Source: an uncultured Candidatus Cloacimonadota bacterium (lineage in GTDB: Bacteria > Cloacimonadota > Cloacimonadia > Cloacimonadales > TCS61). Taken from it: 64,000 nucleotides of DNA. Where the stretch lies: contig CAYSSJ010000004.1 of assembly GCA_964433675.1 (NCBI GenBank), forward strand, positions 66,454 to 130,453. Reading direction: 5' to 3'. The translations under genes were made by a program, and so were the position numbers. The notes below the pieces were generated by a model. The model did no database searches. It saw only the letters and a list, made by a program, of their open reading frames with translations, and was not told the origin of the DNA. This document shows positions 3,309 to 64,000 of the stretch, one piece after another (position 1 is the first letter of the stretch; every line of letters starts with the position of its first letter).

Positions 3309-4118
3309 TTACAATTGGATAAATGCCTTTTTATGATCATGCGGGAAGAAGAGGATACCCTCTCTCTGTTGCAACTCTGATAGTATACGTTTTTTGGCAT
3401 GGTAAGTATCTTTGCGGCAGACATCGTAAGCTGAGGTGACAGCCGGATGCAGATGCGGCTCCGAAGTGATGATATCACCGGCATAATAAGCTAATTCACC
3501 ATCACTTTCTATCCGGATAGATTGCATCCCTTCGGTGTGTCCACCTACCAACTCCAGTCTTACCTCATCGGTAAGCTGATGATCACCGTCTATGAGCAGG
3601 AAATTACCGCTTTCTTCCAAGAGGGTGAGATCAGCTTTGAAGTTGTAGGAAGCCATGTTTAGGCCGTCCGGATGTTTGGCTATTTCCCACTCCCGCTGCT
3701 GAATTATATGAGTGGCATTAGGGAAAGTGAGCTTATATTCACCATTTTGTGCGGAAACGATTCCACCGGCATGGTCGAAATGGAGATGAGTGAGCACCAC
3801 ATAGTCTATCTCTTCGGGTTCGATCCCTAGTTTTTTCAGATTCTCAGGCAGGCAAAACTCGCTAGGTTGATAGATCTTCTGTTGCTTAGCGGTGATCTTG
3901 TTCCCGATTCCTGTATCGATGAGGATCGTCTTAGCTGCCGTACGGATGATCAGCAGATTGAGAGCGAGCGGGATGCGGTTTTTCTCGTCCGGGGTGATCT
4001 TCTTCTGCCATATAGCTTTGGGCAATACACCCATCGAAGCACCACCGTCTCCCTTCCAGCTTCCGGCTGAGACAATATAATTATTTGTTTTTCCCAGCTT
4101 TATTCCGTTTTGGTTCAT
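3309..4118 (-). CDS. MBL-fold metallo-hydrolase
   Basis: LTHLHFDHAGG (HxHxDH) metallo-beta-lactamase motif. The 38 nt overlap with jag suggests the true start may be the internal Met at about 4034. Confidence 0.7.
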   Translation of the reverse strand: MNQNGIKLGKTNNYIVSAGSWKGDGGASMGVLPKAIWQKKITPDEKNRIPLALNLLIIRTAAKTILIDTGIGNKITAKQQKIYQPSEFCLPENLKKLGIEPEEIDYVVLTHLHFDHAGGIVSAQNGEYKLTFPNATHIIQQREWEIAKHPDGLNMASYNFKADLTLLEESGNFLLIDGDHQLTDEVRLELVGGHTEGMQSIRIESDGELAYYAGDIITSEPHLHPAVTSAYDVCRKDTYHAKKRILSELQQREGILFFPHDHKKAFIQL

Positions 4119-4782
4119 AATTCTTTTTATTAGAATTTTCAGGCAGTTTATCTGCCGGCATTATTACTATTCTTTTTTGACTACCTTCACCGATCGTCAT
4201 GGTCTTCAAATCTTTATCTTTTTCTATCTGTTTGTGTACAACGCGGCGGTGAGCGGCGTGTAGCGGTTCGAGTGTTATACTTTTGTTGCGGGTTTTCACC
4301 TTCTCAGCGATGCTTTTTACTTTGTCCACTAGAGCATCTTCCCTACGTTTGCGATAGTTATCCACATCGAGTTTAACTTTTATCGGGGCTTTTTCCGCTT
4401 TGCTTATCATTTGTGTGATCAGATATTGTAAACTATCGAGTAGTTTTGCTTCTTTTCCGATCAAAAATCCGGCATCTTCCTTGCTACTGATCTTAACTTC
4501 GTAAATACCGTTGTTCTCTTCACAGGTTACGGTTTCATAGCGTACATTCATCTTGTCCATCAAAGTTTGAGTGAAAGATTTGATCCTCTCACTGCTGTCG
4601 GGCAACGTAAATTTGATTTTCACTTTTTTGGAACCGAATAGTCCCAATACACCTTTTGATCCTTCTTCTACAACTTCAAAGGTAAAATCTTGCAAATTCA
4701 AGTTAAATTCTTTCATAAAGCTGTTTATCACAGCTGAAGTTGTTTTTCCTTCTCGTTTGATTACTTTCATAGGTTTCCTCAA
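4081..4782 (-). CDS. jag: Jag/KhpB-type RNA-binding protein (Jag_N, KH, R3H)
   Basis: Position directly downstream of yidC; KH-like GFLIGKEAKLLDSLQYL segment; conserved yidC-jag synteny. Confidence 0.7.
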   Translation of the reverse strand: MRKPMKVIKREGKTTSAVINSFMKEFNLNLQDFTFEVVEEGSKGVLGLFGSKKVKIKFTLPDSSERIKSFTQTLMDKMNVRYETVTCEENNGIYEVKISSKEDAGFLIGKEAKLLDSLQYLITQMISKAEKAPIKVKLDVDNYRKRREDALVDKVKSIAEKVKTRNKSITLEPLHAAHRRVVHKQIEKDKDLKTMTIGEGSQKRIVIMPADKLPENSNKKNYEPKRNKAGKNK

Positions 4783-6377
4783 TATAGTTTTTTCTTAATA
4801 AAATACTGTTGGAATATAGACATCACATTGAATACAGTCCAATACAATACCAATCCGGCAGGCAGGGTGCGAAAGATAAAGAATAGTACGACCGGCATGA
4901 TATAAGCCATCATTTTCTGGCTTTGATAAGCAGCTTGCTGTTTTTCATCCATCTCTTCGGATGCTTGTTTGGAGGGAGCCATCATTTTCTGCTGAACGAA
5001 CATGAAGAGAGCCATAATGATTGGCAGGATCATATAGGGATCCGGCTCGGATAGATCCGGCAGCCAGAGGAAATGCGTCTGCCTGAGCTCGATAGAATAG
5101 CGCAAAAGCGGGTAGAGGGCAAACAAGACGGGCGCCTGCAAGAGCAGTGGCAGACATCCGCCCAGCGGATTTACCTTGTGTTCTTTGTATAGATTGCGCA
5201 ATTCCGCTTGCAGCTTCTTCGGATCGTCCTTGTACTTGGTCTGGATCTCTTTCATCAGCGGATTGATCTTCTGCATCTTGGTGGTGGATTCGAAACTCTT
5301 GTGAGTGAGTGGGTAGAGTATGATCTTGAGTACGAGGGCAAAGATGATGATGCAGATACCCCAGTTTGGGATCACATTGTTCAATTTCTGCAAGAACCAC
5401 AAAAATATCTTACTGATCCACTGAATGATACCGGGTCCCAACTCCACATTGTTTTCCAATCCGATATTGTATCTGTTCAAATTATCGTACAAAAGCGGAC
5501 CCAGATACATATCATAGGAATGGCGGATACTCTCTCTCGGCACGGAGACATTCATACTAAAAGCGGGGCTTTCCTGAACAGTGGTCACCAGCACACTGTT
5601 GGTATCGATCATATCGTCCGGGATAAGACTGAGGATGAAGTACTTGGAGCGGATTACAGACCAGTCTATATTCCCTCTGAATACTTCCGGTTCACTTATG
5701 CGCGATAGTCTTTCTCTGGTGATGGAATTGTCTATCTGGGCTGCGAAATTGTATTCTCTCGATTTGTTCTTCAGATATTCTTCCGTATCAGCAATACCGG
5801 AGAGGAATGAGACATCATAATTATCTACTGCCACTATTCCCTCGGCTACGAACTGACTATGTACATTATACTCGTCGTTTAGCTCATAAGTAAGTTGGAT
5901 GCTGCCGGCATCGCTAAGGAGTGTGAAGGAGACGCGCTTGTTGTCCGGCGAAGTATCGTATTGGAAGCGAAATTCGGATAGATCAATCTCCGTACCGTCT
6001 GTAGTATGCAGAGTGATTCCAAAGAGAGCTTCATTTTCCGGGATCAGATTCACATAGGAAGTCTTATCTGCCAGATAATATTCTTTCAGGATCACCTCGT
6101 TGACCATCGCACCCTGATTTGTAAAGGTAAGCGCCATTTTATCGTTCTCTATACGGATATCATCTCGGCGGACTTCTTCTTCGTCCAGTTCTTGTAGATC
6201 TAAGGGGGTGCGACGAGTAGGTTCTTCATAAGATACTTCTTCGGTGTAAGGTTCTTCTACGATTTCGGGCCGGGGTTGTTGAACCGGTTCTTCTTCCGGT
6301 GTACGCCAGAGGATCTGGTTACTGATCCAAAAGACGATAAAGATGAGCAACAGGGTAATAATAGTTCTTTTTTCCAC
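4779..6377 (-). CDS. yidC: Membrane protein insertase YidC
   Basis: N-terminal TM then periplasmic domain; C-terminal 5-TM core with conserved YidC-like segments; synteny rnpA-yidD-yidC. Confidence 0.85.
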   Translation of the reverse strand: MEKRTIITLLLIFIVFWISNQILWRTPEEEPVQQPRPEIVEEPYTEEVSYEEPTRRTPLDLQELDEEEVRRDDIRIENDKMALTFTNQGAMVNEVILKEYYLADKTSYVNLIPENEALFGITLHTTDGTEIDLSEFRFQYDTSPDNKRVSFTLLSDAGSIQLTYELNDEYNVHSQFVAEGIVAVDNYDVSFLSGIADTEEYLKNKSREYNFAAQIDNSITRERLSRISEPEVFRGNIDWSVIRSKYFILSLIPDDMIDTNSVLVTTVQESPAFSMNVSVPRESIRHSYDMYLGPLLYDNLNRYNIGLENNVELGPGIIQWISKIFLWFLQKLNNVIPNWGICIIIFALVLKIILYPLTHKSFESTTKMQKINPLMKEIQTKYKDDPKKLQAELRNLYKEHKVNPLGGCLPLLLQAPVLFALYPLLRYSIELRQTHFLWLPDLSEPDPYMILPIIMALFMFVQQKMMAPSKQASEEMDEKQQAAYQSQKMMAYIMPVVLFFIFRTLPAGLVLYWTVFNVMSIFQQYFIKKKLY

Positions 6378-6392
6378 GATTTACTCCAATGT

Positions 6393-6611
6393 TTAAGGCA
6401 GTGGGTCTATCCCACCGGGATGAAAGGGATGACAGCGCAGGATACGAGTAACTGAGAGCCAGAATGCCTTGAAGAAAGGGTATTTTTGAAAAGCGCTACA
6501 GGCATATTCGCTGCAAGTCGGCATAAAGCGGCAAGTAGGTGGAAGCATGGGTGAGATGAACCTTTTGTAGCCTCTGATCAGAAAAAGAAAAAAACGGTTA
6601 GCGAATTTCAT
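6393..6611 (-). CDS. yidD: Membrane protein insertion efficiency factor YidD
   Basis: [19 protein letters not shown]...HPGGIDPLP is the YidD signature. Confidence 0.85.
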
Positions 6612-6931
6612 ACCACTCTCGCTAAGATGTCTTCCAAGTCGGTTCTAATACTTTCCCAACCTACCTCAACAGCTTCCGGTTTGGCTATGATGAGCATTTT
6701 CTTCTGCTCGGGCAGATTATGTTCCCACTCTCTAAGGAAAGCACGAACACGTCTTTTTATCTTATTTCGTACCACAGCACGCTTATCTACACGTTTGCTG
6801 ATGATGATAGCGACCAAGCAGGTTTGCCGGTTCTCACCATCACAGACCAGCAGATTGAAAAATCTGCCCGGATATCTTTTGTGTCTTGCATATATTTCAT
6901 CAAAATCTTTTTTTGCAGAGATATATCTCAT
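6608..6931 (-). CDS. rnpA: Ribonuclease P protein component
   Basis: RNase P protein motif [19 protein letters not shown]; overlaps rpmH stop (ATGA). Confidence 0.85.
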
Positions 6932-7071
6932 TTATCGCTAACGGTAAGGATATGTCTTCCCTTTGCGCGTCTGCGCGCTAGGATTTTTCTACCGGCTTTG
7001 GTAGCCATACGAGCACGGAAACCATGCTTGTTCCTACGCTTACGATTATGCGGTTGATATGTCCGTTTCAT
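6928..7071 (-). CDS. rpmH: 50S ribosomal protein L34 (not in ORF track, under 60 aa)
   Basis: Manual translation of minus strand gives [47 protein letters not shown], the canonical L34 sequence. Confidence 0.85.
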
Positions 7072-7180
7072 AAATCAAACTCCTTTATCTATACTATATA
7101 ACTTTTTATTTCTCAGGTTTTTACCTGAGAGAGCTACCTTGAAATCAGCGGTTTTGATGTCAAGAAATATTTGTAGATCA

Positions 7181-8437
<1,257 letters not shown>

Positions 8438-10109: not shown

Positions 10110-10764
10110 GAGAGTGTGAGAAGATGGGAATAGTAACGAAGGATTAAGGATCAAGGACGAAGGAAAGAACCAATATAGTGGCGCAGTTTTTAGTGATGAG
10201 TGATGAGTTTACATGCGAAGAAGATAGAGGATAGAGAGTAGAGGGAAGATTGGAGGTTAGGTGGATAGGAGGATAGGTTTGGAGTGAAAGCACCAAATTT
10301 CCCCGACAAAATAGGCAAGAAGATATCAGGTGAAAAGTAAAAGGGGAGAAGGGAAAGGGAAAAGTAACAAGTGACGAGTAACGAGTGACAAGGAAATCTC
10401 AATGACCGAATGACCGTAACGACTGAACGATTGAACGACTCAACTAATTAACCAATTAACCAATCAACCTCATCTTGCTATTCTTGCACCAACTCACACT
10501 TCGATACGCTCCGGCTTACGCCGAAGCTACTCAGTGTGACAAGCTTCTGATCTCTAAACCCTCAACCCTAAACTTCATCCTTGTCCTCCGTAGCCTCGGC
10601 GAAGGAGGATTGCTTCTCTCGCACCACTTTTCACATTATTAATTCTCTTGGAAAAAACATCATTGACAAATTGCAGCTTCAAGAAAAAGTGGGAAAAAAA
10701 GTAAAAGGAAGTGCATATTGTGATACGAGGACCGATTTGGGGCGTGCAAAAGTTTATAATACGA

Positions 10765-10797
10765 AAGCATTTATCGACTGGTAAATGCTTTTTTTCT
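10765..10797 (+). terminator. Rho-independent terminator-like hairpin (agcatttatcgactggtaaatgct plus 7 T)
   Basis: 7-bp perfect stem, 8-nt loop, followed by tttttttc; lies at the end of a 700 bp repeat-rich gene-free region just upstream of the 10830 gene. Confidence 0.55.
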
Positions 10798-10829
10798 TAT
10801 ATAGAGTCTAATTTGGCAAGGAGCGTGTT

Positions 10830-50368: not shown

Positions 50369-51137
50369 CTTGATAACCTCTATCTTCTTCGTGTTGCAAC
50401 ACGATAACTTTGTTTAGAGCTCCCAGATCCACAAAGGGTTCAATTTTTGCTTTCATATTTACTCTATCGGGTGATTCTATCAATTGTGTAACCACGCCTA
50501 CTTTGTAACCTTTTGGGAAAACAGAAGAGATAGGAGAGGTGATGATGGTATCTCCCAAACTGATCTCTGCTCCTACTCGGATCAAACTTATATACAAATT
50601 CCCATCGAAATCGGATTCTAATAAACCTTGTAATTCAGATTGTTGAGACATGACGCTTAATTTGAAAGAAGAGTTGCTATAAGGTAGCAGGATGGAATAG
50701 TTTGGTGAGACGGAAATTATTTTGCCAACCACACCCTCCGGGGTGATAACGGGGTAGTCTCTTTGCAGTTTATCTATGCTGCCTTTGTTTAGAATGAATT
50801 GTAGTTCATCCAACATACCTGTGTAGCCGATAATATCGGCGATGACAAAATTATTTGTTTCTTCGGACTCGAAAGTGATAGTAGCATTGATATCGCGGAT
50901 TTTTTCCTGTAGTTCGGTTACTTGGATCGTCTTATGAGCCAAAAGTTGTTCAAGCTCCTGATTTCTGGCGCGAACGCTCATCATTTCTTCTATAGAATGA
51001 ATAGAACTGGCAAACGGCAGATAGAGAGAATTTGCCAAAAAATTCGCTTTTGTGATTCTCTGCGATTCATTCCCCCACAACAATATCAAAGCTAATAACA
51101 GATAGATTATGAGTAGAAGATTATTTCTCACCATCAA
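50343..51137 (-). CDS. mreC: Rod shape-determining protein MreC
   Basis: N-terminal TM, coiled coil, beta-rich C-terminal domain; follows mreB. Confidence 0.75.
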   Translation of the reverse strand: MMVRNNLLLIIYLLLALILLWGNESQRITKANFLANSLYLPFASSIHSIEEMMSVRARNQELEQLLAHKTIQVTELQEKIRDINATITFESEETNNFVIADIIGYTGMLDELQFILNKGSIDKLQRDYPVITPEGVVGKIISVSPNYSILLPYSNSSFKLSVMSQQSELQGLLESDFDGNLYISLIRVGAEISLGDTIITSPISSVFPKGYKVGVVTQLIESPDRVNMKAKIEPFVDLGALNKVIVLQHEEDRGYQDEFDHIIR

Positions 51138-52171
51138 TCATTAATGTCTTTGATCAATACATCTTTGAAAGTTTCCAGATTATCCAAGACCATTCCGCTT
51201 CCTTTGAGCACACATGTAAGAGGGTCGGAGATCAGGTGTGCCGGCAGATCGACAGTCTCTTGGATCTTCCTGTCCAGCCCTTTCAGTTGTGAACCTCCGC
51301 CAGTAAGTATGATGCCACGCTCGGCTATATCAGCTGCCAATTCCGGAGCTGTTTTTTCAAATAGCCGTTTGACTGCATCGATCATTAGGTTGACCGTTTC
51401 TGCCAGAGCTTCGCGGATATCCTCGGAGCTAACTTCGACAGTGATTGGATAACCGGTGATAATATCCCTACCTCTTACTTCCATTTTGATCTCTTTTTCC
51501 AATGGGAAAGCAGATCCTATCTTTATCTTTATCCGCTCGGCAGTTTGGATGCCGACGTAGATGTTGTTCTTCTTACGAAGATAGTTTACGATTGCATTAT
51601 CCATCTTATCACCACCGACACGGATAGAAGTATGTACCACGATATGAGAGAGGGAGATAATTGCGATTTCTGTAGTACCGCCACCTATATCCATGATCAG
51701 GTTTCCCTGCGGCTTATGGATCGGTAGATTCGCACCGATGGCTGCAGCAACAGGTTCGGATACCAAAAATACTTCCCGTGACCCGGCATGAAGAGCACTA
51801 TCGCGCACAGCACGTTTCTCTACTTCAGTGATACCGGATGGCACACAGACAAGCACACGCGGTTTAATCAGAAGCCGCCGCTTCTGTGCTCGTAATATCA
51901 AGTTTCTCAACATCAATTCAGTAACCTGAAAATCAGCTATTACGCCGTCTTGTAATGGCTTGATAATTATTACTTCTTGCGGATTCTTACCCAGCATCTC
52001 CTTGGCAGATTCGCCGATGGCTATTATCCGCTTTTTGTCGCTCGAGATAGCTACTACTGAGGGTTCATCAATAACTATTCCGAAGCCCTTTCTATATACC
52101 AACGTATTTGCCGTGCCAAGATCAATGGCAATATCGTTGTTAAACATTTCCGATATATTTCTAAACCACAT
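51134..52171 (-). CDS. mreB: Rod shape-determining protein MreB
   Basis: Actin-fold motifs IDLGTANT, DIGGGTTE. Confidence 0.9.
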   Translation of the reverse strand: MWFRNISEMFNNDIAIDLGTANTLVYRKGFGIVIDEPSVVAISSDKKRIIAIGESAKEMLGKNPQEVIIIKPLQDGVIADFQVTELMLRNLILRAQKRRLLIKPRVLVCVPSGITEVEKRAVRDSALHAGSREVFLVSEPVAAAIGANLPIHKPQGNLIMDIGGGTTEIAIISLSHIVVHTSIRVGGDKMDNAIVNYLRKKNNIYVGIQTAERIKIKIGSAFPLEKEIKMEVRGRDIITGYPITVEVSSEDIREALAETVNLMIDAVKRLFEKTAPELAADIAERGIILTGGGSQLKGLDRKIQETVDLPAHLISDPLTCVLKGSGMVLDNLETFKDVLIKDIND

Positions 52172-52275: not shown

Positions 52276-54354
52276 TCAGTAATCGAACAGCTTTTCCTGA
52301 GAATGGTAACGAGTAAAAAAAGTCTGATGTAAAGCCTTGTTCTTGTCTTTCTCCAGCTCAAAATCTTCGTCTATGATAGAAAAAGCCCAGTATCTCGCCT
52401 CAGTAAGAATCTGTTGATCACGCACGATATTGGCTAACTTGAAGAGTGGGAAACCACTTTGCTCGGTACCGAAGAAATTTCCCGGTCCGCGCAAATCCAT
52501 ATCTTTCTCTGCTATCTTGAAGCCGTCATTGGTCTCTATCATGATATTCAGCCGTTCTTTTGCCTCTTTGCTCATGGGTGGATAGGCAATAAGATAACAA
52601 TAAGACTGTGCTGCACCTCTACCTACCCGTCCGCGCAGTTGATGTAGCTGACTCAATCCGAATCTTTCAGCATGCTCTATCACCATTATGGAAGCATTGG
52701 GTACATCTATGCCAACTTCGATAACTGTGGTGGCTATCAATACAGATATACGATTGTCGTTAAAATCCCGCATAATAGCATCTTTATCTTTCTGCTTCAT
52801 CTTTCCGTGTAATAGAGCGCAATGATGATCCTTATAGATTTCAGTGCTGAGTGTTTTAAACAGAGATTGGGCTGCCAGGAGATCACTTTTTTCAGATTCC
52901 TCTACCAACGGACAGACGATATATACCTGCCTACCTTTGGCAATATTTCCCCGCAGTTTTTTGTACAAATCCTCTCGTTTACCTGCACCGATCCATTTAG
53001 TTCTCACCGGTTTTCTGTTCGGTGGCAGCTCATCTATCACACTTACATCAAGATCACCATACACCGTAAGAGCAAGGGAACGGGGGATAGGAGTGGCAGA
53101 AAGGTGCAATATGTCCGGATGCTTACCCGATTGTGAAAGGAAAGCACGCTGCTTTACTCCAAAACGATGCTGCTCATCTATGGCAACGAAACCGACATTA
53201 TGATAGCGCATATCTTTTTGGATAAGTGCGTGTGTACCTATGATGATATTTATCTTCCCTTCCGCTATTGTTTCTTTAGCTGTTTTTTTTGCCTTGTTCT
53301 CACCGCCGGTGATCAATACGATGCTGAGCTCCGGTTGATTTTTTAAAAGGGAGGAGACATTTTTGAAGTGTTGCTCTGCCAGAATCTCTGTGGGAGCCAT
53401 CATCACAGCTTGAAATCCGTTTTCGATAGCGATCAACATAGCAAAGACGGTAACGATCGTCTTACCTGAGCCAACATCACCTTGAAGCAATCTATTCATC
53501 TGTCTCTTGGCGGTCATATCGGTTACTATCTCTCGGATCACTCTCTTCTGAGCACCCGTAAGAGCGAATGGTAGAGATTCTTTCAAAGCGGTAGAGTATG
53601 TCTTTTTCAGACTAAATTTGTTGCCCTCTTTTTCGATATGATGTCTTTTCTTAGTACGAGCCAACATCAATTGATGATAAAACAGCTCTTCGAAGATAAA
53701 TCTCTTTTTTGCAGTTTGAATAGCCTGAGGATGGGCAGAAAAATGAATATCATGAACCGCATCCTGCCGGGAGGGAAATTTATACTTTTGCAGAAGATAA
53801 TCAGGTAGCGTTTCCTCCAGATATTTACCATACAAACGGTAGGCATTATACACCAAGTCCCGCATTAGATTCATGCCGATCTTTTCGGTGAGAGGATAAA
53901 CCGGCAAAAAGGTTTTATCCAACCAATAACTGCTTTTATTTGGATTAGTCAATATCTCAAAATCCGGGTGCACTAACTGCATTTTACCCATAAATTCTGT
54001 CACCACACCACTCAACCAAATCGTCTCACCTTCTTTGAACTGAGCCAAAAACCAAGCACTAAACCGAAACCAAACACAATCGATAAAAGCTTTCCCGTCG
54101 GTGATGATGAGATGTAACTGTTTTCTACCCTGTTTATCCATCCGTTTATGTACGGAATGGATCTCGCCTATCAGTGAACAGCGTTCTCCTACTCTGAGGT
54201 CTCGAATAGATTGGCAAGCATGGCGATTGATATAATCACGCGGGAAATGAAAGAGCAGATCCTCGATCGTTTGAATATCGAGTTTTTTGAGAAGGCGAGC
54301 TCGAAACTCACCCACTCCTTTCAAATACTGTACACTATTCTTTAACGGATCCAT
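52276..54354 (-). CDS. recG: ATP-dependent DNA helicase RecG
   Basis: Wedge domain plus SF2 helicase motifs (GDVGSGKT, DEQHRFG). Confidence 0.9.
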   Translation of the reverse strand: MDPLKNSVQYLKGVGEFRARLLKKLDIQTIEDLLFHFPRDYINRHACQSIRDLRVGERCSLIGEIHSVHKRMDKQGRKQLHLIITDGKAFIDCVWFRFSAWFLAQFKEGETIWLSGVVTEFMGKMQLVHPDFEILTNPNKSSYWLDKTFLPVYPLTEKIGMNLMRDLVYNAYRLYGKYLEETLPDYLLQKYKFPSRQDAVHDIHFSAHPQAIQTAKKRFIFEELFYHQLMLARTKKRHHIEKEGNKFSLKKTYSTALKESLPFALTGAQKRVIREIVTDMTAKRQMNRLLQGDVGSGKTIVTVFAMLIAIENGFQAVMMAPTEILAEQHFKNVSSLLKNQPELSIVLITGGENKAKKTAKETIAEGKINIIIGTHALIQKDMRYHNVGFVAIDEQHRFGVKQRAFLSQSGKHPDILHLSATPIPRSLALTVYGDLDVSVIDELPPNRKPVRTKWIGAGKREDLYKKLRGNIAKGRQVYIVCPLVEESEKSDLLAAQSLFKTLSTEIYKDHHCALLHGKMKQKDKDAIMRDFNDNRISVLIATTVIEVGIDVPNASIMVIEHAERFGLSQLHQLRGRVGRGAAQSYCYLIAYPPMSKEAKERLNIMIETNDGFKIAEKDMDLRGPGNFFGTEQSGFPLFKLANIVRDQQILTEARYWAFSIIDEDFELEKDKNKALHQTFFTRYHSQEKLFDY

Positions 54355-54578
54355 ATTGATATTTATTTCGTATCTGCTTGTTTCCAGTCAAGAAAAAGAT
54401 TTGACTGCAGTGGAACAGATAGGCTCCACATGGCAGGCAGGGCAGGCAAAGAAATCCCAAATTCCAAGCACCAAATACCCCCCAGTGAAATATTTCTGAC
54501 GAAATTTCACTGGGCAGGCAAATAAATCTCAAATCCCAAACTACAATGACCAAAACGAAAACCTGCATTTACTAAGTT

Positions 54579-54621
54579 CACACTTCGATACGCTCCGGCT
54601 TCGCCGAAGCTACTCAGTGTG
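54579..54621. repeat. Core imperfect hairpin of interspersed mosaic repeat (copy 2 of 4)
   Basis: cacact-tcgatacgctccg-gcttcg-c-cgaagc-tactc-agtgtg; near-identical copies at 10495-10538, 61515-61554, 61836-61879. Confidence 0.8.
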
Positions 54622-54819
54622 ACAAGCTTATGACCGTTGATCTCTAAACTATCACTCTAAACTGCATATTGCATTATTCATTATACATTGTTCATTTACT
54701 TACATTCTCACCTTCTCCAATCTGCTTACTGCCTACTGCTTACTGTATTCCAATCTTCCTATCTTCCTATCCTCCTAACCTCCTAACCTCCTATCTACTA
54801 CCTTCCACCGTCTATCACC

Positions 54820-57147
54820 TTACTTCAACAGAACCACCCGATGTGTCTGTGTCTCACTACCATTTCTCAGCTTCGCCAGATATATCCCCGAAGCTACCAC
54901 TCTGCCACGATTATCTCTGCCATCCCAGGTGATATGAGTTACAGAATCTTCCGATGGTGACACTTCCAATTTTCGCACTAACTGTCCTTTGATGTTGTAG
55001 AGTTCGATGACGGCATCTTCGTCTATCTGGGGCAGATTAATAGCGAAGGTGGTCTCAGTATTGAACGGATTGGGGAAGTTAGCGAAAGTTACCTCCGGTG
55101 GTAAGATAGCGGGCTCATCGGCGGAGATGGGAGTGATATTAAGTTCGTAGAGGGAGAGGTGGTCTCTATTAACACTGAAAGCATAAACTTCTGGTCCGGT
55201 TTCGAGAAAATGCATATTATTTGTTCCATGTAAGGTCTCATGTCCAAATATGAAACTATCAATTATTCCGTTTGGAGAATCTCCAATATCATAAAGCAAT
55301 TGTATCGGGCGGACAGCTGATGTAGTTATAAACAAAATTCCATCATAATAATCAACGGTATAAGGAGTAATACTTAAACCTGTCTGAATCGAAAACTGTA
55401 CTGTTGGTTCAGTAGGATTTTCTAATGAATAAAAATTATCTATTATTGTATTATAATCTCTATGAAAGAGATAATCATTTACTATCGTTGGAGATGCATG
55501 TGCATGATTAACAAAATTCATATGAGAATTTGCAATAGAAGGATCATTCTCGAACAAACCATCTATTATATAGAGGTTTTGAGTGTTTTGTGGTTCATTT
55601 CGTTCATACAAATAACCATAACCATTATGTATCAAAATCGTATATCCGACCGGATGTTCGAATTCGAATAGCAATTCGGGATTTCGAGGATCACTGATAT
55701 CATATTTTCTTAATATCGAATTTGGGTAATGCCTGTAAATATAAATCGTGTCATCTTCATATTCATCTATACGAATCTTACTATGAACAATCGGTTCTGT
55801 AGATATTTCGGCTAAAAGTTCTACTTCCGGCAAGTTTGATATATCATAAATCTCGACCAATGATTCTGCCATCACAGATAGTATTAGTAAATCATGCTTT
55901 ATGTTTATATGATAATATTCATTTTCATATAATTCGTTATAAATAATTTGAGGATTATGAGGATCCTGTATATCATAAAAATAGACGCCGGCACTTCCAA
56001 AGGTAGTATAATACCAATCAGAATTTATTACAAGATAATGATCATAAAACTTACTGGTACTGGCTAAGGTAGTTGGGTAGTCAAAATGTATTTCTCTAAA
56101 TTCGATTTGCATTTCATCCCTATTCAATTCAAAAACATGGATATAGTCGGTTAAGGTAGCATAGATAATATCTTCATGTACTGTGGGTTGTCTGGGAACT
56201 GGCACATATATGTTAATATGGTCAAGAACTTGTGGATTATAAATATCACTAATATCCAATAATTCTAATCCATTTTGCTTCATTAAGATCAATAAATGAT
56301 CGTCTATATAACTATATTTTCTATAATTGACAGAAAGCGGAAAATCAAATTCATAATGTGTTATATATTGCCAATCTACCGGATCGGTTATATCCCAAAA
56401 TGAGATAGCAAATTGGTTATTTACCATAACAACATCTTCTGAATATCTGGTAAAATAGGTAATGGAAGATGTTGTCGGGTTATGAATATCGGACATATCT
56501 ATCTCATTGAGGTATTGAATATTGTTTATATCGGAAAATTCATAAAAATATAATGTGTTGTTTGGCATACTAATATGTATCGCAATTTCATCGGTTAATT
56601 CGTGTAGTGTCAGGTAGTAAGGTGGTAGCGGCGACTGAGGAAGTGTGGCAACATATTCCAAATCCGGTAAGGTATATAGCTCACTTCCTTCCAGAACATT
56701 ATAGACTTGTAGATAATTTCCGATTTTATAACCGCCAACACCAGTTGATTCAGAGTAACTAAGTTGAATTGCATTTTCGATTATCGGAGTTGAAGGATTA
56801 GATACATTTACTTGATATATAGTACTTGGTTCGGTGACAAAATCAAATTCGGGGTAACTAGGTCCAAATGTGATGATATATAAATAATCCCCGTGTTTCA
56901 CAAATGAATTTGGCACCTTGAAAGGTAAGATTGATAAACATTCCAATGTCCCATTTTCCTGGATTTCGAATATCTGCATAGAACATCTGGTTATTGTGTA
57001 CAAATATGGCTCATCGATTATTATGTGATCATGACTTGAAAAATAAGACTGAGAATAACCGTAGTGATCGATAAGCTCTAACGAAGCTTCTGTAGCTAAC
57101 ACAGGAAGTACTATTATAGTTAGAATTAATATAATAATATTTTTCAT
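54820..57147 (-). CDS. LVIVD-repeat beta-propeller protein with T9SS C-terminal sorting domain (paralog A)
   Basis: Signal peptide; repeated LxIxDISDPxNP-type LVIVD blades; C-terminal FANFPNPFNTETTF...YNIKGQLVRKL...GIYLAKL T9SS CTD. Confidence 0.7.
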   Translation of the reverse strand: MKNIIILILTIIVLPVLATEASLELIDHYGYSQSYFSSHDHIIIDEPYLYTITRCSMQIFEIQENGTLECLSILPFKVPNSFVKHGDYLYIITFGPSYPEFDFVTEPSTIYQVNVSNPSTPIIENAIQLSYSESTGVGGYKIGNYLQVYNVLEGSELYTLPDLEYVATLPQSPLPPYYLTLHELTDEIAIHISMPNNTLYFYEFSDINNIQYLNEIDMSDIHNPTTSSITYFTRYSEDVVMVNNQFAISFWDITDPVDWQYITHYEFDFPLSVNYRKYSYIDDHLLILMKQNGLELLDISDIYNPQVLDHINIYVPVPRQPTVHEDIIYATLTDYIHVFELNRDEMQIEFREIHFDYPTTLASTSKFYDHYLVINSDWYYTTFGSAGVYFYDIQDPHNPQIIYNELYENEYYHINIKHDLLILSVMAESLVEIYDISNLPEVELLAEISTEPIVHSKIRIDEYEDDTIYIYRHYPNSILRKYDISDPRNPELLFEFEHPVGYTILIHNGYGYLYERNEPQNTQNLYIIDGLFENDPSIANSHMNFVNHAHASPTIVNDYLFHRDYNTIIDNFYSLENPTEPTVQFSIQTGLSITPYTVDYYDGILFITTSAVRPIQLLYDIGDSPNGIIDSFIFGHETLHGTNNMHFLETGPEVYAFSVNRDHLSLYELNITPISADEPAILPPEVTFANFPNPFNTETTFAINLPQIDEDAVIELYNIKGQLVRKLEVSPSEDSVTHITWDGRDNRGRVVASGIYLAKLRNGSETQTHRVVLLK

Positions 57148-57219
57148 ATTAAACTCCTTCTTTTTAGTTTTTTCAATTAAGGAGCAGCACTGATGCTGCT
57201 CCTTATATTTATTATTTCA

Positions 57220-57600
57220 TTATGGTATTTGAGGAGTAGTACCACCACCATGTTGATTAGACGGCCAATAAATATCAAGCTCAATAGTAGATGGATGAAC
57301 TTCTCCAACTGTATAACTATCGTATTTATCTAAAATTAAAATACTCTGATGTGTACTTTTCATTTTAATCTCTGTACCAGGTTCAAGGCTTTCAGCAATT
57401 CTAGTCTCAGTCTCTCTCTCTCCGGGTACTAAAATAAACAATAACTCATTTTCTTCGTCTGGTCTTATTTCCCAAAAAAAGTATTCACCTGAATGAGCAT
57501 CTTCATGTACTTCACCAGTATACTTTATTGTTACTTCTGCCCACAACATTCCGATAGCAAAAAATATCATCAGGACCGTGATTATTATTATCTTTTTCAT
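57220..57600 (-). CDS. Small secreted protein (cassette A partner)
   Basis: Signal peptide MKKIIIITVLMIFFAIGMLWA; C-terminal IYWP..GGG resembles the 60575 paralog. Confidence 0.5.
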   Translation of the reverse strand: MKKIIIITVLMIFFAIGMLWAEVTIKYTGEVHEDAHSGEYFFWEIRPDEENELLFILVPGERETETRIAESLEPGTEIKMKSTHQSILILDKYDSYTVGEVHPSTIELDIYWPSNQHGGGTTPQIP

Positions 57601-57834
57601 TTTCTTTTCCTCCAGTTATTTTTATTTGTGCTCCCTATCTCATCCATTTTATTAGATTTGGAAAAGATAGTACTCCACCTCTCCCCGCGCCGGAGCATTA
57701 CGTAGGGAGAAAGAGCCGGATGTATTTGTTGCGACAGCAGAAATAGAGTCTTCGGAGGAAACTTGCTTTGATGATAATTGTTTCATATCTGACAGCCTTT
57801 CTATTTAAAGGACATATTTCTAAGGACAGAGAGA

Positions 57835-57847
57835 GGGGGGGGGGGGG
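57835..57847. repeat. Homopolymeric G13/C13 tract in conserved upstream region of cassette A
   Basis: 13 consecutive G followed by taaaat, about 235 nt upstream of the 57600 start codon. Confidence 0.9.
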
Positions 57848-58190
57848 TAAAATATTGTTTTACATAGAGATAGCGAATCTGACGCTAATTCTCTTTGCAA
57901 AACAAAAAGTTTGTGAGCAAATCTCAGGATCATCATGCCTCCTTACGATCCTAAAAACTACCCTTTACCTCACGCTCCTTAGCTACGATATTGACATTTT
58001 TCCTTGCGAAATTATAGCATTAATTTTCTAAAACACTTATCTACCTGTCAAGAAAAATCTTATCTTCCAACAAATTCCTATAAATTCCTGCCAATACCTT
58101 GTTTCTAAACCTCTCCCTTGTCCTCCGTAGCCTGTAAGGTGAAGGGGGCTTGCTTCTTCTTCCACCCTCCACTCTCCTCCTTCTATCATC

Positions 58191-60506
58191 TTACTTCAAC
58201 AGCACCACCCGATGTGTCTGTGTCTCACTACCATTTCTCAGTTTCGCCAGATATATCCCCGAAGCTACCACTCTGCCTTTACTATCTCTGCCATCCCAGG
58301 TGATATGTGTTACAGAATCTTCCGATGGTGGAACTTCCAGCTTACGGATCAATTGTCCTTTGATATTATAGAGTTCGATTACGGCATCGTCTTCTATATC
58401 CGGAAGATTGATAGCGAAGGTGGTTTCGGTGTTGAACGGATTGGGGAAGTTGGCGAAAGCCATATCCGGCGGGATTATAGCGGGATCATCGGCGGAGATG
58501 GGAGTGATATTGAGTTCGTAGAGGGAGAGGTGGGAGCGTCCGATATTATACATATAAGTAGTAGAATTAGTTTCGTAGATAAATGAGTAGTTTTGAGAAT
58601 ATTCCTCAAAATAAGTTTCATGTGTAATTGTACCGGTAACTTCACCCGATATGTCATATAAGAAAGTGACACGTGATCCAAGCATTAATGGAGAGGCAAA
58701 TATGATATCTTCATAATACAAATACATATTCAGTGGGTATTCGAGTTGAAAGACGAATTCTGGATTATGGGGGTCTGTTTGTATTTCATATAAGTGCGAT
58801 TCATGATTTGGAGAAAACAAGACTAAGTGGTCCAGGTAGTTGTTCGTGTACAAGTAAACAGTATCATCATAATTACTGAAGCCTGGGATAGCATTTGCCA
58901 GATAAGGCTGATTATCATGCAAACCACCTACTACATGCAGATCTTGGGTTGCTGCATGCTGATGATTGGTTAAGATATAACCATATCCATCGTTTACTAC
59001 AAATCTCGGAGCTGTAAATCCGTCCTCATAAAATAACAGTTCTACAGAATTAGACTCTATTTGGTATTTTCTAATAATTGAATCCGGATAGCGCGTATGC
59101 ACATAAAATACATCATCCACATAAGGATCTGTAACTACTTGTGAAAATATAAAATCCCAAACATCATAAAAGACAATTTGATCGATTAATCCGGGCATGG
59201 TGGGAACTGTGATATCATATATATTTAGATAGAATTCATCCTGATTAAGATCTCCATCTACTTTAGCAATCAGATAGTTATCAAGTATTTTGGGTTGAGA
59301 TAAATCTTTGAATGCTTCTATTTCTATAATAGATGGATTGAGTGGATCAGAGAGATCATACATATAAATACCATAGTAGTCCGAATCAAGAAATATTAAA
59401 TCCATATATTGTCCGGCAAGGCTAGAATTAACAGGGTAAGAAAGATATTCGCCAATGTATTCGAATTCCATAGTACTTTCATTCAGATAAACCTGTAAGA
59501 TACCTTCATCATCATCGGAAGGTATATAAATAGTATTATTAGACTCATTAAATACCCCGCAATTTATGTTCTTATAAAAAAGATCATGATGATCCAGTAT
59601 GACAGGGTCATAGATGTCGGTTATATCGACCAGGTATAGTCCATCTTGGGCATATACTATCATCAGCCAGTTTTCTATTATATCATGCACAGCCCGCCAT
59701 ATCATATCAGAATCCAAAGAAAAACTGCTGAGATAAGTCCAATCTTCGGTATCTGATATATCCCAAAAGGAAAGACAAGTCTGTCCTGCCATCATCAGCA
59801 ATGTATCTCTGATTACGGTGAATTTCCCGGGTAAATGATCACCATGAATGTCCCAGACATCGATGGTGCTTATGAGTTCTAGATTTTCGATATCGGAGTA
59901 ATCATATATATCGATATTGCCATAACCTGGGCTTTGATCAACTGCTATATTATCGGAGATTTCATGTAACTTTACATGATAACCCGGTAGAACAGAAGGT
60001 GGCAGGGAAGTAATATATTCCAGATCGGGTATGGTGTATATATCGCTGGCAAACTGATAACTGCCGGCTTGTAGATATTCGCCTACTATGTTGATAGAAC
60101 GATTGTTCTCAATACTATCATATTCAATGCTATTGATAATTTGCGGATTATGCTTATCAGAGACATCTATCTGATGTAAAGTTAAAGGCGTGGTATATGG
60201 TTTCAAATATGAGCCAACAAAATTGCTGGTAAGCAGATAGATATAATCATCCGCTTTGGTAAAGTATGCAGCACTAACGATAGGTAAGTGCGATAATTTG
60301 GTCAGTTCATCATCGTTACCAATTTCAAAGATAGCAAGCCCTGATACTGTAACAGCATATAAATATGGGTGTTCTACTATCAACCTGTCGTGTGTAGCAC
60401 CAAAGGCTTCTCCAAAATTAATGGATTTGATATGTTCGATATCTATTTCTACGGATACTAAATTGTATGTAAATATTATTAGTATAATTATCCCTATATT
60501 TTTCAT
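58191..60506 (-). CDS. LVIVD-repeat beta-propeller protein with T9SS C-terminal sorting domain (paralog B)
   Basis: Same architecture as paralog A; last 330 nt nearly identical to paralog A at DNA level. Confidence 0.7.
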   Translation of the reverse strand: MKNIGIIILIIFTYNLVSVEIDIEHIKSINFGEAFGATHDRLIVEHPYLYAVTVSGLAIFEIGNDDELTKLSHLPIVSAAYFTKADDYIYLLTSNFVGSYLKPYTTPLTLHQIDVSDKHNPQIINSIEYDSIENNRSINIVGEYLQAGSYQFASDIYTIPDLEYITSLPPSVLPGYHVKLHEISDNIAVDQSPGYGNIDIYDYSDIENLELISTIDVWDIHGDHLPGKFTVIRDTLLMMAGQTCLSFWDISDTEDWTYLSSFSLDSDMIWRAVHDIIENWLMIVYAQDGLYLVDITDIYDPVILDHHDLFYKNINCGVFNESNNTIYIPSDDDEGILQVYLNESTMEFEYIGEYLSYPVNSSLAGQYMDLIFLDSDYYGIYMYDLSDPLNPSIIEIEAFKDLSQPKILDNYLIAKVDGDLNQDEFYLNIYDITVPTMPGLIDQIVFYDVWDFIFSQVVTDPYVDDVFYVHTRYPDSIIRKYQIESNSVELLFYEDGFTAPRFVVNDGYGYILTNHQHAATQDLHVVGGLHDNQPYLANAIPGFSNYDDTVYLYTNNYLDHLVLFSPNHESHLYEIQTDPHNPEFVFQLEYPLNMYLYYEDIIFASPLMLGSRVTFLYDISGEVTGTITHETYFEEYSQNYSFIYETNSTTYMYNIGRSHLSLYELNITPISADDPAIIPPDMAFANFPNPFNTETTFAINLPDIEDDAVIELYNIKGQLIRKLEVPPSEDSVTHITWDGRDSKGRVVASGIYLAKLRNGSETQTHRVVLLK

Positions 60507-60574
60507 AAATTCCTCCTAAAATTTTTTATTAAGTAGGGGAAGCAGCAAGGAGCTGCTTCCCTCTTTTTTCTTAC

Positions 60575-60991
60575 TCATTCAGGTTCCGGTATAGTTGGAT
60601 CATACTCCTCTGGAGGTTCTCCACCACCACCACCGGGCCAATAGATAACGATCGGATTGCCACTGAAGCCAGGCGGAACATCTTTTGTCCTTAGTATTGT
60701 TTCACCACTTGATGTTGTTGATTCGACTCCTGCACAGGCAGGATATTGAGTAGAGCTGGTTATGTATGTAGTATATGTTCTTGTATCTGGTGCTTGTACA
60801 TCTCCATAAGAACTAGATCGATAGAATGAAAATGGTGGACAAGGTTCTCTATCATATCCAATTTCAACATCATAAGCATTTTGAGTAAAGTGAACTTCTA
60901 CTATTAATTCGAGTGGATATTCAGTATCTGCTTGTAGCATGCCAACAGTACCCATTAGTAAGAGTACTGCGAGAATTATTATCTTTTTCAT
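60575..60991 (-). CDS. Small secreted protein (cassette B partner)
   Basis: Signal peptide MKKIIILAVLLLMGTVGMLQA; Ser/Thr/Tyr-rich; C-terminal IVIYWPGGGGG. Confidence 0.5.
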   Translation of the reverse strand: MKKIIILAVLLLMGTVGMLQADTEYPLELIVEVHFTQNAYDVEIGYDREPCPPFSFYRSSSYGDVQAPDTRTYTTYITSSTQYPACAGVESTTSSGETILRTKDVPPGFSGNPIVIYWPGGGGGEPPEEYDPTIPEPE

Positions 60992-61244
60992 TTTTTATTC
61001 CTCCTAATTTTTTTTTCACCCGTTATTTAATTTTACTCTCACCACAGGCAGGGTGAGAGGATTCCCCCTCGACTTGCGCCGGTAGTGGCAAATCAAATCC
61101 CTCTCTATGCGGGGAATCTTTTCATAGAGAGGTGCGCTCAGGTGAACTTGTTCTTCCCGATATAGAAGATATAATATTTTTTGGAGCGAGTATAGTTTTC
61201 TTGCTTTACTTTGCATCTTTTTATCTGTTTGGCATAGAAGTTGC

Positions 61245-61253
61245 GGGGGGGGG
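61245..61253. repeat. Homopolymeric G9/C9 tract in conserved upstream region of cassette B
   Basis: 9 consecutive G followed by taaaat, about 255 nt upstream of the 60991 start codon. Confidence 0.9.
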
Positions 61254-61974
61254 TAAAATGCCTATAATATAATGAGATAGAGTGAGAGCGCAGACTGCTT
61301 TGGAATATCCATAAATTCGACTAAAGCAACTCAGGAGCATCGTCACCTCCTTGTTTTTCCGCTCCTAAAAACTCTCTTTCTCATTCCCTTAGTTTCGATA
61401 TTGAACTTTTTTCTCATTTATATTATCGAAGCAAGTCTCTATATCTAACTAATATGTGTCAAGAAAAAAACTTTTTTCACCGGAATTTCTTCCTGCTACT
61501 CTTTCGCTATTTCCACTTCGATACGCTCCGGCTTCGCCGAAGCTACTCAGTGTGACAAGCTTATGACCGTTGATCTCTAAACTATCACTCTAAACTGCAT
61601 ATTACTTCTCTTCCAATAAAATTCCATGAGCGATGCGAATAAATTTCTCAATTCATTTCTTGATATTTTTTCGAAAACAAGATGACATCTTGTCCTACGT
61701 TCCATGCTCTTTGCAATAAATTCCGTGAGCGCAGCGAACAAATTCCTACATATTCCTATCAATACCTTCTTCCTAAACTTTCAACCAATTAACCAGTCAA
61801 CTAATCAACTTCATCCTGCTATTCTTGCACCAACTCACACTTCGATACGCTCCGGCTTGCGCCGAAACTACTCAGTGTGACAAGCTTATGACAGTTGATC
61901 TCTAAACTATCACTCTAAACTGCTTCTTACATTGTTCATTATACATTATTCATTCTCAACAGAATCTCTTCCTG

Positions 61975-62070
61975 CTTTTTCTTCCACCTTCCACCTTCTA
62001 TCATCTTATTTCAACATCACCACCCTATGTGTCAGCGTCTCCTTGCCATTTTTCAGTTTCGCCAGATATA
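61975..62070 (-). pseudogene. Degenerate remnant of an LVIVD/T9SS gene 3' end (CTD-encoding fragment only)
   Basis: About 90 percent identity to 58150-58260 over about 95 nt, then abrupt loss of similarity 25 nt before the comM stop codon. Confidence 0.6.
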
Positions 62071-62095
62071 CTCTCTAACCTAACGTCACACGCCT

Positions 62096-63634
62096 CTATT
62101 CCCAAAATTTCTTATCCAGACTGCGATATTGAACTGCTTCACTCAGATGAGAGGTGCGGATATTTTCACTGCCGTCCAGATCGGCAACTGTACGGGCAAC
62201 TTTTAGTATCCTATCATAAGCGCGGGCAGAAAGTCCCATCCTATCCATCGCCATTTTCAGAAGATTCTTCCCATCTGAATCCAGCTTGCAGTAACGGCGG
62301 ATCTGTTTGGGATTCATCTGCGAATTTCCATAGATATTTTCATTTTGGAAGCGTTCTAATTGTATCTTTCGGCATCTATTCACGCGTTTACGAATATCTT
62401 TGGATTTTTCACCGGTCGGCAGGCTGGCAAGTTCGTCGTATTTCACTGCCGGCACTTCCACATGTATATCTATCCTGTCCAGAAGCGGACCGGAAATGCG
62501 GGAACGGTAACGTTGGATATTAGTGATAGTACACTGGCAGGAATGCCCTTCGATATTGCTACCGAAATACCCGCAAGGGCAGGGATTCATCGAAGCAACC
62601 ATCATGAATTTTGCCGGAAATTCCAAGCTCTGGGAGGCCCGTGAAATGGTTACGATCTCATCTTCGAGCGGCTGTCTGAGTACTTCCAAGACAGTTTTTT
62701 TGAATTCGGGTAATTCATCGAGAAATAGCACACCATTATGAGACAGAGACACTTCTCCCGGTTTAGGATAGCTACCCCCGCCGATTAGAGCTACATCACT
62801 GATAGTATGATGAGGTGAGCGAAAGGGTCTGGTAGTGATGATCCCCTTTTCTTTGTTGGTAAGACCGGCGACAGAGTGTATTTTGGTAGTCTCCAGCGCT
62901 TCTTCTAAAGAGAGATCCGGCATGATCGTCGGCAATCTGCGCGCCAGCATAGTCTTTCCGGAGCCGGGTGGACCGAGCATAAGAATATTGTGTCCACCGG
63001 AAGCTGCTACTTCCAAAGCTCGTTTTACATGAAATTGTCCCTTCACATCGAACATATCGATCATATCTTCGTTCAAAGAAGCGAATATCTTCTGCTGGTC
63101 AACCTTATGCGGTTTGATCTCCAGTTTATTCTCCAAAAACATGATCGCTTCTTTCAGTGAGGTAACGGGATAAACCGATATTTCATCTATGATAGCGGCT
63201 TCTTTAGCATTTTCGGTGGGGAGGATCAGTCCATCGAGCTTATCCTTCCACACGGATATAGCGATAGGCAACACACCTTTGATCGGCCTCAGCTCACCAT
63301 CCAGCGACAGTTCACCTACAAGTGCATAGCGCTCGATATCGTTGCATTTGATCTGTCTCATCCCATAAAGCAAGGCAATGGCAATGGGCAGATCGAGCGC
63401 TACTCCCTCTTTCTTTATATCTGCCGGCGCCAGATTTACAGTGTAGTTGTAATTAACGAATTTGTAGCCGGAATTCTTTATGGCTGCAGAAACGCGATCG
63501 CGACTCTCTTTTACAGTGTTGGAAGGTAAGCCTACGATTGTAAACTTGAAAAGCCCACCTTTGATATCAGCTTCGATAGTAACTTGCTGAGCGTCTATCC
63601 CCTGAATAGCATAAGAAAGAGTTCTTCCATACAT
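62096..63634 (-). CDS. comM: YifB/ComM-family AAA+ ATPase (Mg-chelatase-like)
   Basis: N-terminal Lon-protease-like domain, Walker A GPPGSGKT, Mg-chelatase ChlI-like C-terminus. Confidence 0.85.
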   Translation of the reverse strand: MYGRTLSYAIQGIDAQQVTIEADIKGGLFKFTIVGLPSNTVKESRDRVSAAIKNSGYKFVNYNYTVNLAPADIKKEGVALDLPIAIALLYGMRQIKCNDIERYALVGELSLDGELRPIKGVLPIAISVWKDKLDGLILPTENAKEAAIIDEISVYPVTSLKEAIMFLENKLEIKPHKVDQQKIFASLNEDMIDMFDVKGQFHVKRALEVAASGGHNILMLGPPGSGKTMLARRLPTIMPDLSLEEALETTKIHSVAGLTNKEKGIITTRPFRSPHHTISDVALIGGGSYPKPGEVSLSHNGVLFLDELPEFKKTVLEVLRQPLEDEIVTISRASQSLEFPAKFMMVASMNPCPCGYFGSNIEGHSCQCTITNIQRYRSRISGPLLDRIDIHVEVPAVKYDELASLPTGEKSKDIRKRVNRCRKIQLERFQNENIYGNSQMNPKQIRRYCKLDSDGKNLLKMAMDRMGLSARAYDRILKVARTVADLDGSENIRTSHLSEAVQYRSLDKKFWE

Positions 63635-63647
63635 AAAATTTCTCCTT

Positions 63648-64000
63648 TCACCTGGCGATAACCACCGTCTCGCGTTCGGTATATACTTTTTCTGATTCTT
63701 GAGAAGTGGCTTCCAGATTTATGATATACACTCCTACCGGCAATCTACGTCCATCTTCCGAATAGCCGTTCCAGACGAAATCGCCAGAATAAGCCTGTAA
63801 TACTTGATTTGCCAGTTTTCGTACTAGCCTGCCTTTGATATCGAATATTCTCACCGTTACTCTACTGATGACCTCCGGTAAGGAAAAACTGATGATGGTA
63901 TATTCACCTCTGCGTGGTGCGAATGGATTTGGATTGGCAGTGATACTTGCTTGCGTGGGCAAATAGACTACATAGATACTGTTTTGCCTGCCCGGTGTCG
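63648..64000 (-). CDS. T9SS C-terminal sorting domain protein, 3' part only (gene continues beyond window end)
   Basis: ANPNPFAP...RIFDIKGRLVRKL...GVYIINL CTD motif; reading frame stays open upstream to position 64000 (tool start is a TTG). Confidence 0.6.
   Translation of the reverse strand, partial: TPGRQNSIYVVYLPTQASITANPNPFAPRRGEYTIISFSLPEVISRVTVRIFDIKGRLVRKLANQVLQAYSGDFVWNGYSEDGRRLPVGVYIINLEATSQESEKVYTERETVVIAR

Follow-up and report, generated by a model that had tools for sequence, protein, structure and literature searches.

A truncated cargo-gene tail downstream of comM

A short stretch of DNA directly behind comM in an uncultured Cloacimonadota bacterium resembles the 3′ end of a T9SS cargo gene, yet stands without the remainder of such a gene. 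We asked what this stretch is, which gene it could derive from and how it came to lie beside comM. The analysis covered one window, the whole 64,000-nt stretch of DNA, in which two cassettes of a small ORF and a large cargo gene lie between comM and recG. The top relatives of comM among GTDB species representatives were Cloacimonadota MAGs with 76-81% identity. The genes of the locus are as follows.

51134-52171, minus strand: mreB
52276-54354, minus strand: recG
54820-57147, minus strand: paralog A, T9SS cargo protein, 775 aa
57220-57600, minus strand: small signal-peptide ORF of cassette A, 126 aa, counterpart of the 138-aa gene
58191-60506, minus strand: paralog B, T9SS cargo protein, 771 aa; its final 343 nt and flank form the conserved 3′ module
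60575-60991, minus strand: small secreted-protein gene, 138 aa, first gene of cassette B
1104 nt: gap between the 138-aa ORF and comM
62096-63634, minus strand: comM/YifB Mg-chelatase-like AAA ATPase (TIGR00368), intact, 512 aa
63648, minus strand: end of another FlgD_ig/CTD protein

The integrity of comM was evident from its match to TIGR00368, which scored 638 bits (cutoff 362) and extended over model positions 3-499 of 499. Paralogs A and B reached 40.1 and 39.4 bits, respectively, against TIGR04183, the T9SS type A sorting domain (cutoff 23); their scores against Pfam PF18962 (26.9 and 21.4) fell slightly under the cutoff of 27, and FlgD_ig was over its cutoff. Both proteins terminate in GIYLAKLRNGSETQTHRVVLLK followed by the stop codon. 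The pair is a mosaic: amino acid identity is 39% overall, whereas a 359-nt segment that includes the flank (54804-55162 versus 58175-58533) is 88% identical at the DNA level and gap-free. Moreover, the gene bodies are AT-rich, with a GC content of 32-35% and a GC3 of 25-31% against 42-46% in comM, recG and mreB, while the shared 3′ module has 48% GC. This mosaicism suggests that gene conversion took place or that foreign bodies became joined to a sorting-domain module already resident. Between the 138-aa and 126-aa small proteins, likeness is limited to the signal peptides.

BLASTN within the window aligned 61973-62070 to the tail of paralog B (58151-58255; 83%, E 1.7e-26) and 61980-62070 to the tail of paralog A (54794-54884; 83.5%, E 3.8e-22). 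Altogether, the minus strand of 61973-62082 corresponds to the last 22-25 codons, the stop codon and approximately 33 nt of 3′ flank of the two paralogs, with 81-83% identity, no gaps and E values of 1e-22 to 1e-26. A repeat search placed 54794-54896, 58165-58267 and 61980-62082 in a single ungapped family with 81-89% identity, and tblastn with either paralog as the query returned a match at 62071-62009 (76% over 21 aa). Read on the minus strand in the frame of comM, the region translates as a stop, RRVTLG, a second stop, RVYLAKLKNGKETLTHRVVMLK and a third stop. Its elements are listed below in the direction of transcription.

62075-62095, minus strand: junction between the comM stop and the remnant; sister contig L087 shares sequence only to 62090, and weak tail homology may reach 62082-62086
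62075-62077, minus strand: in-frame TAG ahead of the remnant, where A and B have TCG
62009-62074, minus strand: coding part of the remnant, 22 codons, RVYLAKLKNGKETLTHRVVMLK, matching the final residues of the type A sorting domain (T9SS) in the paralog A/B family
62006-62008, minus strand: TAA with which the remnant ends, aligned with the stop codons of A and B
61973-62005, minus strand: sequence after the remnant's stop, homologous to 58151-58190 directly behind the stop of paralog B

The alignment bears out two statements of a preliminary description made from the sequence alone, namely that about 95 nt of the 3′ end of paralog B survive downstream of comM (83%, ungapped and in frame) and that clear similarity breaks off at ccagatata (62062-62070), 25 nt short of the comM stop at 62096-62098. 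Weak similarity to the tails (7/13) may extend to about 62082-62086, and the remnant begins 13-20 nt past the comM stop. Only approximately 66-75 nt of the roughly 95-nt match consist of codons, the remainder being non-coding. The concern, raised in the same description, that the similarity might be of low complexity and not collinear with the gene end did not materialize: the E values are those given above, and the match is collinear with the end of the gene, keeps the stop codon and runs about 33 nt beyond it. At both coding-tail positions where A differs from B, the remnant carries the base of B. The 12 base differences from paralog B are spread 4/3/5 over codon positions 1/2/3, a number too small to discriminate between drift and constraint.

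The 22 codons contain no ATG, GTG or TTG before the last four, and two in-frame stops lie ahead of them (62075-62077 and 62096-62098); the stretch is therefore better regarded as a gene remnant than as a member gene. It shows what a truncated pseudogene would be expected to show, that is, homology to a functional paralog far beyond chance, collinearity and truncation, while the start, signal peptide and cargo of a complete secreted protein are missing from its 22 codons. On these sequence features, we interpret 61973-62082 as what a T9SS cargo gene of the A/B family left behind, a truncated and non-functional remnant.

Search for the donor gene

Compared with 279 retrieved proteins, the remnant tail agreed best with A and B (16/22 residues), the next best agreement being 11/22. 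An exhaustive HMMER search of 1.84 billion representative proteins for a third protein with the C-terminal module of A and B returned only A and B. A word-indexed protein search with paralog B recovered the protein itself and a single relative with 26% identity. The same kind of search with a chimeric query carrying the remnant tail yielded nothing relevant; it also missed A and B, so the index is unreliable here. In the window, tblastn detected no further fragments of A/B gene bodies. We infer that the donor was a complete third paralog, which is a hypothetical gene.

The spacer behind the remnant repeats the spacer between the cassettes

BLASTN and alignment demonstrated collinearity of two spacers, one running from comM to cassette B and the other separating cassette B from cassette A. 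The first collinear block comprises the tail and the post-stop flank (61973-62070, corresponding to 58151-58255) and is followed by two further blocks.

61737-61778, minus strand: spacer block, 42 nt, homologous to 58069-58110 (86%) in the B-A spacer
61325-61414, minus strand: block of the upstream/promoter region of cassette B, corresponding to 57916-58004 upstream of cassette A

Both spacers then continue with a TTGACA block, a homopolymer tract and a ribosome-binding site, up to where the signal peptide of the small ORF begins. The comM-B spacer is thus equivalent to the B-A spacer with two additional insertions, both of which are copies of a dispersed repeat. The preliminary description had noticed that 61738-61777 parallels 58070-58110; this parallel is real (the 42-nt block above), but 58070-58110 belongs to the spacer and promoter region upstream of a cassette and not to a downstream flank.

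Because the two spacers are collinear, the remnant lies at the expected end point of a preceding cargo gene. Judging from this arrangement, the unit of the array consists of the tail of the preceding gene, a spacer, a promoter region, a small secreted-protein gene and a large cargo gene; in the unit before cassette B, the tail seems to have been retained and the gene body to be gone.

The flank modules belong to a dispersed hairpin repeat

The insertions belong to a repeat with four copies in the window and three on other contigs.

54578-54696: copy 1, between the 3′ end of paralog A and the start of recG
61484-61605: copy 2; its central 90 nt (61514-61603) and 54581-54670 are 100% identical
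61807-61954: copy 3, hairpin core and flanks, inserted relative to the B-A spacer
10440-10617: copy 4, between unrelated plus-strand genes, with no CTD gene adjoining
L084:9376-9600, L085:3770-3960 and L086:2294-2585: copies on other contigs

Copies 3 and 1 are 93% identical over 61835-61954 versus 54578-54696. The three additional contigs emerged from a 22-mer scan of metagenome contigs; L084 shares its JGI metagenome of origin with L001, and L085 and L086 are from a different one. Their copies reside in intergenic regions of 0.7-1.7 kb, and a CTD tail match is absent from them. The seven distinct copies share an invariant 52-nt core, CACACTTCGATACGCTCCGGCTT[G]CGCCGAAGCTACTCAGTGTGACAAGCTT, with low-complexity modules on both sides. 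The core is predicted to form a bulged hairpin that is stabler as RNA of the window minus strand (-23 to -25 kcal/mol, z -3.8 to -4.6). Differences between copies in the hairpin affect the loop (GAA, GCAA or GUAA) or convert G-C to G-U pairs, and some loops are GNRA-like (GCAA/GUAA).

A profile search found the core only in the organism's own contigs; the 81 loci searched from other bacteria (the sister contig L087 plus 80 GTDB species representatives) gave no match. The repeat matched no Rfam family, and inspection of the ends of the seven aligned copies revealed none of the terminal inverted repeats or target-site duplications of MITEs. REP and BIME elements are repetitive extragenic palindromes of E. 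coli and Pseudomonas. Like them, the flank modules are extragenic, dispersed and built around a stable imperfect palindrome whose differences fall mostly in the loop, with the four window copies distributed over three separate intergenic regions; unlike them, the modules have an invariant core of 52 nt, the conserved low-complexity sequence on its sides is not palindromic and exceeds 100 nt, and only seven distinct copies were seen, in a search that covered about 100 kb of the organism's DNA. They behave like a lineage-specific dispersed repeat of the REP type.

This result changes the reading of 61500-61925, which had been described as two degenerate copies of the cassette downstream flank. 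The similarity is real (100% and 93%), but it is not specific to cassettes, since the repeat also occurs at 10440-10617 and on three contigs without a CTD tail. Consequently, the flank modules provide no evidence of additional lost cassettes, and the proposal that they point to a formerly longer array could not be upheld.

Two further repetitive features were recorded in these surroundings. Copy 4 lies in a 720-nt intergenic region (10110-10829) made of the short tandem words gtgatgagtgatgag, aacgagtgacgagtaacgag, ggataggaggatagg and caattaaccaattaacc, which switches from purine-rich to pyrimidine-rich near 10400 and of which 10237-10277 matches, in inverted orientation, the flank behind the stop of paralog A (54758-54799). 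Upstream of recG and downstream of paralog A, a 40-nt direct repeat (54440-54479 and 54512-54551) has 80% identity between units spaced 72 nt apart.

Gene order breaks immediately after comM

Upstream of comM, the order g338, response regulator (RR), g301, MazG, histidine kinase (HK), YjeF and LTD541 (LTD/FlgD_ig) is conserved in relatives and in the sister contig L087. Downstream of comM, seven relatives (L006, L007, L008, L010, L012, L015 and L017) carry a convergent block of MBL-hydrolase, jag (EloR) and yidC. In the window, this block lies at 3309-6377, within 3309-8428, 58 kb away and on the strand of comM. The pattern looks like a lineage-specific inversion with one breakpoint just after comM.

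The sister strain P0001 (L087 and L088), whose comM is 97% identical, shares 6 nt past the stop and then continues into unrelated low-complexity sequence. The 136 nt after comM, at which the sister contigs end, contain no remnant and have no match in the window or in the other loci. The point of divergence (62089/62090) is within about 7 nt of the start of the tail homology. Furthermore, no CTD-tail motif was found downstream of comM in 22 relatives (600 nt in 21 loci and 136 nt in L087). The downstream gene order of the relatives and the divergence of the sister strain largely bear out the earlier suspicion that comM or its neighbourhood sits on a junction (of a deletion or insertion, as then suggested), whereas the synteny comparison proposed along with it revealed no full cassette at this site in any relative examined.

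A simple 58-kb inversion in which the CTD protein at 229-3228 would have donated the tail was considered and rejected, as the sorting domain of that protein is complete (ending in KLMMLK and a stop) and its gene has a terminator hairpin of its own. Such an inversion predicts the gene body at the other junction; with 229-3228 intact, either the rearrangement was complex or the body was deleted. GC skew was uninformative as evidence of inversion because it tracks gene orientation.

The arrangement is identical across five assemblies

Six loci from five listed assemblies (JGI, ENA and Logan; three pipelines) were 100% identical wherever they overlapped 54300-63700, and the junction of comM and the remnant was spanned by one Logan contig and one JGI contig. 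Given the identity of five assemblies and the two spanning contigs, the arrangement is not an assembly artefact. Among contigs with comM, paralog B or recG, no structural variants (a cassette-less allele or indels in the homopolymer tracts) were present, and overlaps were identical. Several short-read contigs from the organism and the sister strain (L003, L087, L088, L090, L091 and L094) end inside the spacers, at 61996, 54584, 57860 and 54724 and 136 nt past comM. The repeats account for these breaks, as they fragment metagenome assemblies at the locus.

Origin of the remnant

We favour the interpretation, to which we assign a probability of roughly 60%, that the stretch is what is left of a third cargo gene that preceded cassette B and was cut by a rearrangement. 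From the observed homology, truncation, spacer collinearity, synteny break and repeat dispersal, the events may be ordered as follows. A cargo gene of the A/B family would formerly have stood before cassette B. A lineage-specific rearrangement, the most likely cause, would then have brought the array beside comM, with a breakpoint at about 62083-62089, which is approximately 70-80 nt short of the preceding gene's stop and 7-13 nt beyond that of comM; the remainder of the preceding gene would have been deleted or relocated. The spacer behind the remnant would later have acquired two copies of the hairpin repeat, one of which may recently have been homogenized with the copy downstream of paralog A. 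What speaks against this interpretation is that no relative has a full cassette and no third paralog was found, which makes the donor hypothetical.

The principal competitor, which we hold to be possible but distinctly less probable, is that the two cassettes, their spacer and the last 80 nt or so of a gene at the donor site arrived as one piece by import or duplication of a block. No complete third gene would then have existed at this site, and the remnant would be the ragged end of the transferred block. The deviating GC and GC3 of the cassette bodies relative to comM, recG and mreB would fit such an arrival, as would the ancestral neighbour of comM, which is the MBL/jag/yidC block and not a cargo gene; in addition, as far as public data show, the A/B family is extremely narrow, and the block is flanked by two 90-nt repeat copies with 100% identity (54581-54670 and 61514-61603). 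The comparison with relatives, however, shows that the array has moved together with recG-mreB and 50 kb of housekeeping genes beyond them, so the displaced unit far exceeds the cassettes, and no cassette-less variant occurs among the contigs with recG. Moreover, repeat copy 2 lies inside the stretch that is collinear with the B-A spacer, which makes this copy an insertion into an existing spacer and not an integration junction. A more far-reaching idea, which we consider improbable, is that the shared 3′ module (about 340 nt of coding sequence together with the spacer, promoter region and signal-peptide start) acts as a recombination "docking" module for swapping foreign AT-rich cargo bodies. 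If so, the orphan tail would be an emptied or half-used docking site instead of a passive scar, and the identical hairpin repeats on either side would supply the homology for the gain and loss of cassettes.

It is very unlikely that the tail and its flank were kept after comM as a functional element, be it a small ORF, a terminator or a regulatory RNA. The frame and stop are preserved and the position is where a comM terminator would be expected; nevertheless, retention of the frame is trivial where there are no indels, the absence of an early start codon and the two preceding stops argue against a small ORF, and the element is missing from the 136 nt after comM of the 97% identical sister strain. 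A terminator is likewise disfavoured, as there are no terminator-like sites around the remnant, where promoter-like sites are no commoner than in shuffled sequences. The three tail copies share only a weak consensus fold (-9.6 kcal/mol over 121 nt) with essentially no covariation and no Rfam family matched within 54300-62200, on which grounds an RNA element in the tail was ruled out. The probability is smaller still, and practically negligible, that the similarity arose by chance from low-complexity sequence or that the junction is a chimera assembled at a repeat. The spacers are indeed rich in short low-complexity words, and contigs of several assemblies break at repeats, but the in-frame match collinear with the gene end, at E values that low within the window, speaks against chance, and the five identical assemblies and two junction-crossing contigs speak against a chimera.

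Relation to known systems

Gene remnants in the form of truncated pseudogenes occur at rearrangement and deletion breakpoints in bacterial genomes. The present case is similar in that a start-less 3′ fragment of a paralog is located exactly at a synteny break and at the point of sister-strain divergence; it differs in that neither the partner gene body nor the donor gene was found. We accordingly regard it as an ordinary gene remnant, a routine by-product of rearrangement with no likely function. Resistance islands of the AbaR/Tn6022 type in Acinetobacter insert within comM and split the gene. As with these islands, comM here adjoins a structural junction, but it is intact and the junction follows the stop codon.

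The closest likeness of the array itself is to the KLIKK protease/potempin arrays of Tannerella forsythia, in which T9SS cargo genes whose bodies are unrelated or have diverged strongly carry nearly the same C-terminal region, with a small signal-peptide ORF of about 100-140 residues preceding each of them (PMC4404884, PMC9890683). Paralogs A and B likewise possess a near-identical C-terminal region and a signal-peptide ORF ahead of each gene. The authors proposed that the bodies were fused to a common module (PMC4404884), and the AT-rich bodies of A and B (GC 32-35%) joined to a 3′ module of 48% GC are reminiscent of that proposal. In contrast to the KLIKK arrays, A and B have no detected protease domain, their tail ends in VVLLK and not KLIKK, the small ORFs lack a lipobox cysteine in the aligned signal peptides, and the phylum is Cloacimonadota. 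The passages of PMC4404884 consulted do not mention an orphan tail fragment.

As a marker, the remnant pins a lineage-specific synteny break to about 7 nt from the stop of comM and indicates that the T9SS cargo array is built of units that start with the tail of the preceding gene. With its mosaic paralogs, and with a lineage-specific hairpin repeat active in these spacers, the locus offers a small and testable example of T9SS cargo diversification in uncultured Cloacimonadota.

Other features of the two cassettes

Homopolymer G tracts on the plus strand (C in the sense direction) occupy equivalent positions upstream of both cassettes, at 57836-57848 (13 nt) and 61246-61254 (9 nt), and are candidates for slipped-strand phase variation. 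Their lengths were equal in all assemblies, and contig L091 ends beside the G13 tract. Strong GC-rich palindromes with stems of 11-12 bp (57178-57205 and 60536-60562) lie between the small ORF and the large cargo gene of each cassette, in equivalent position and with different sequence.
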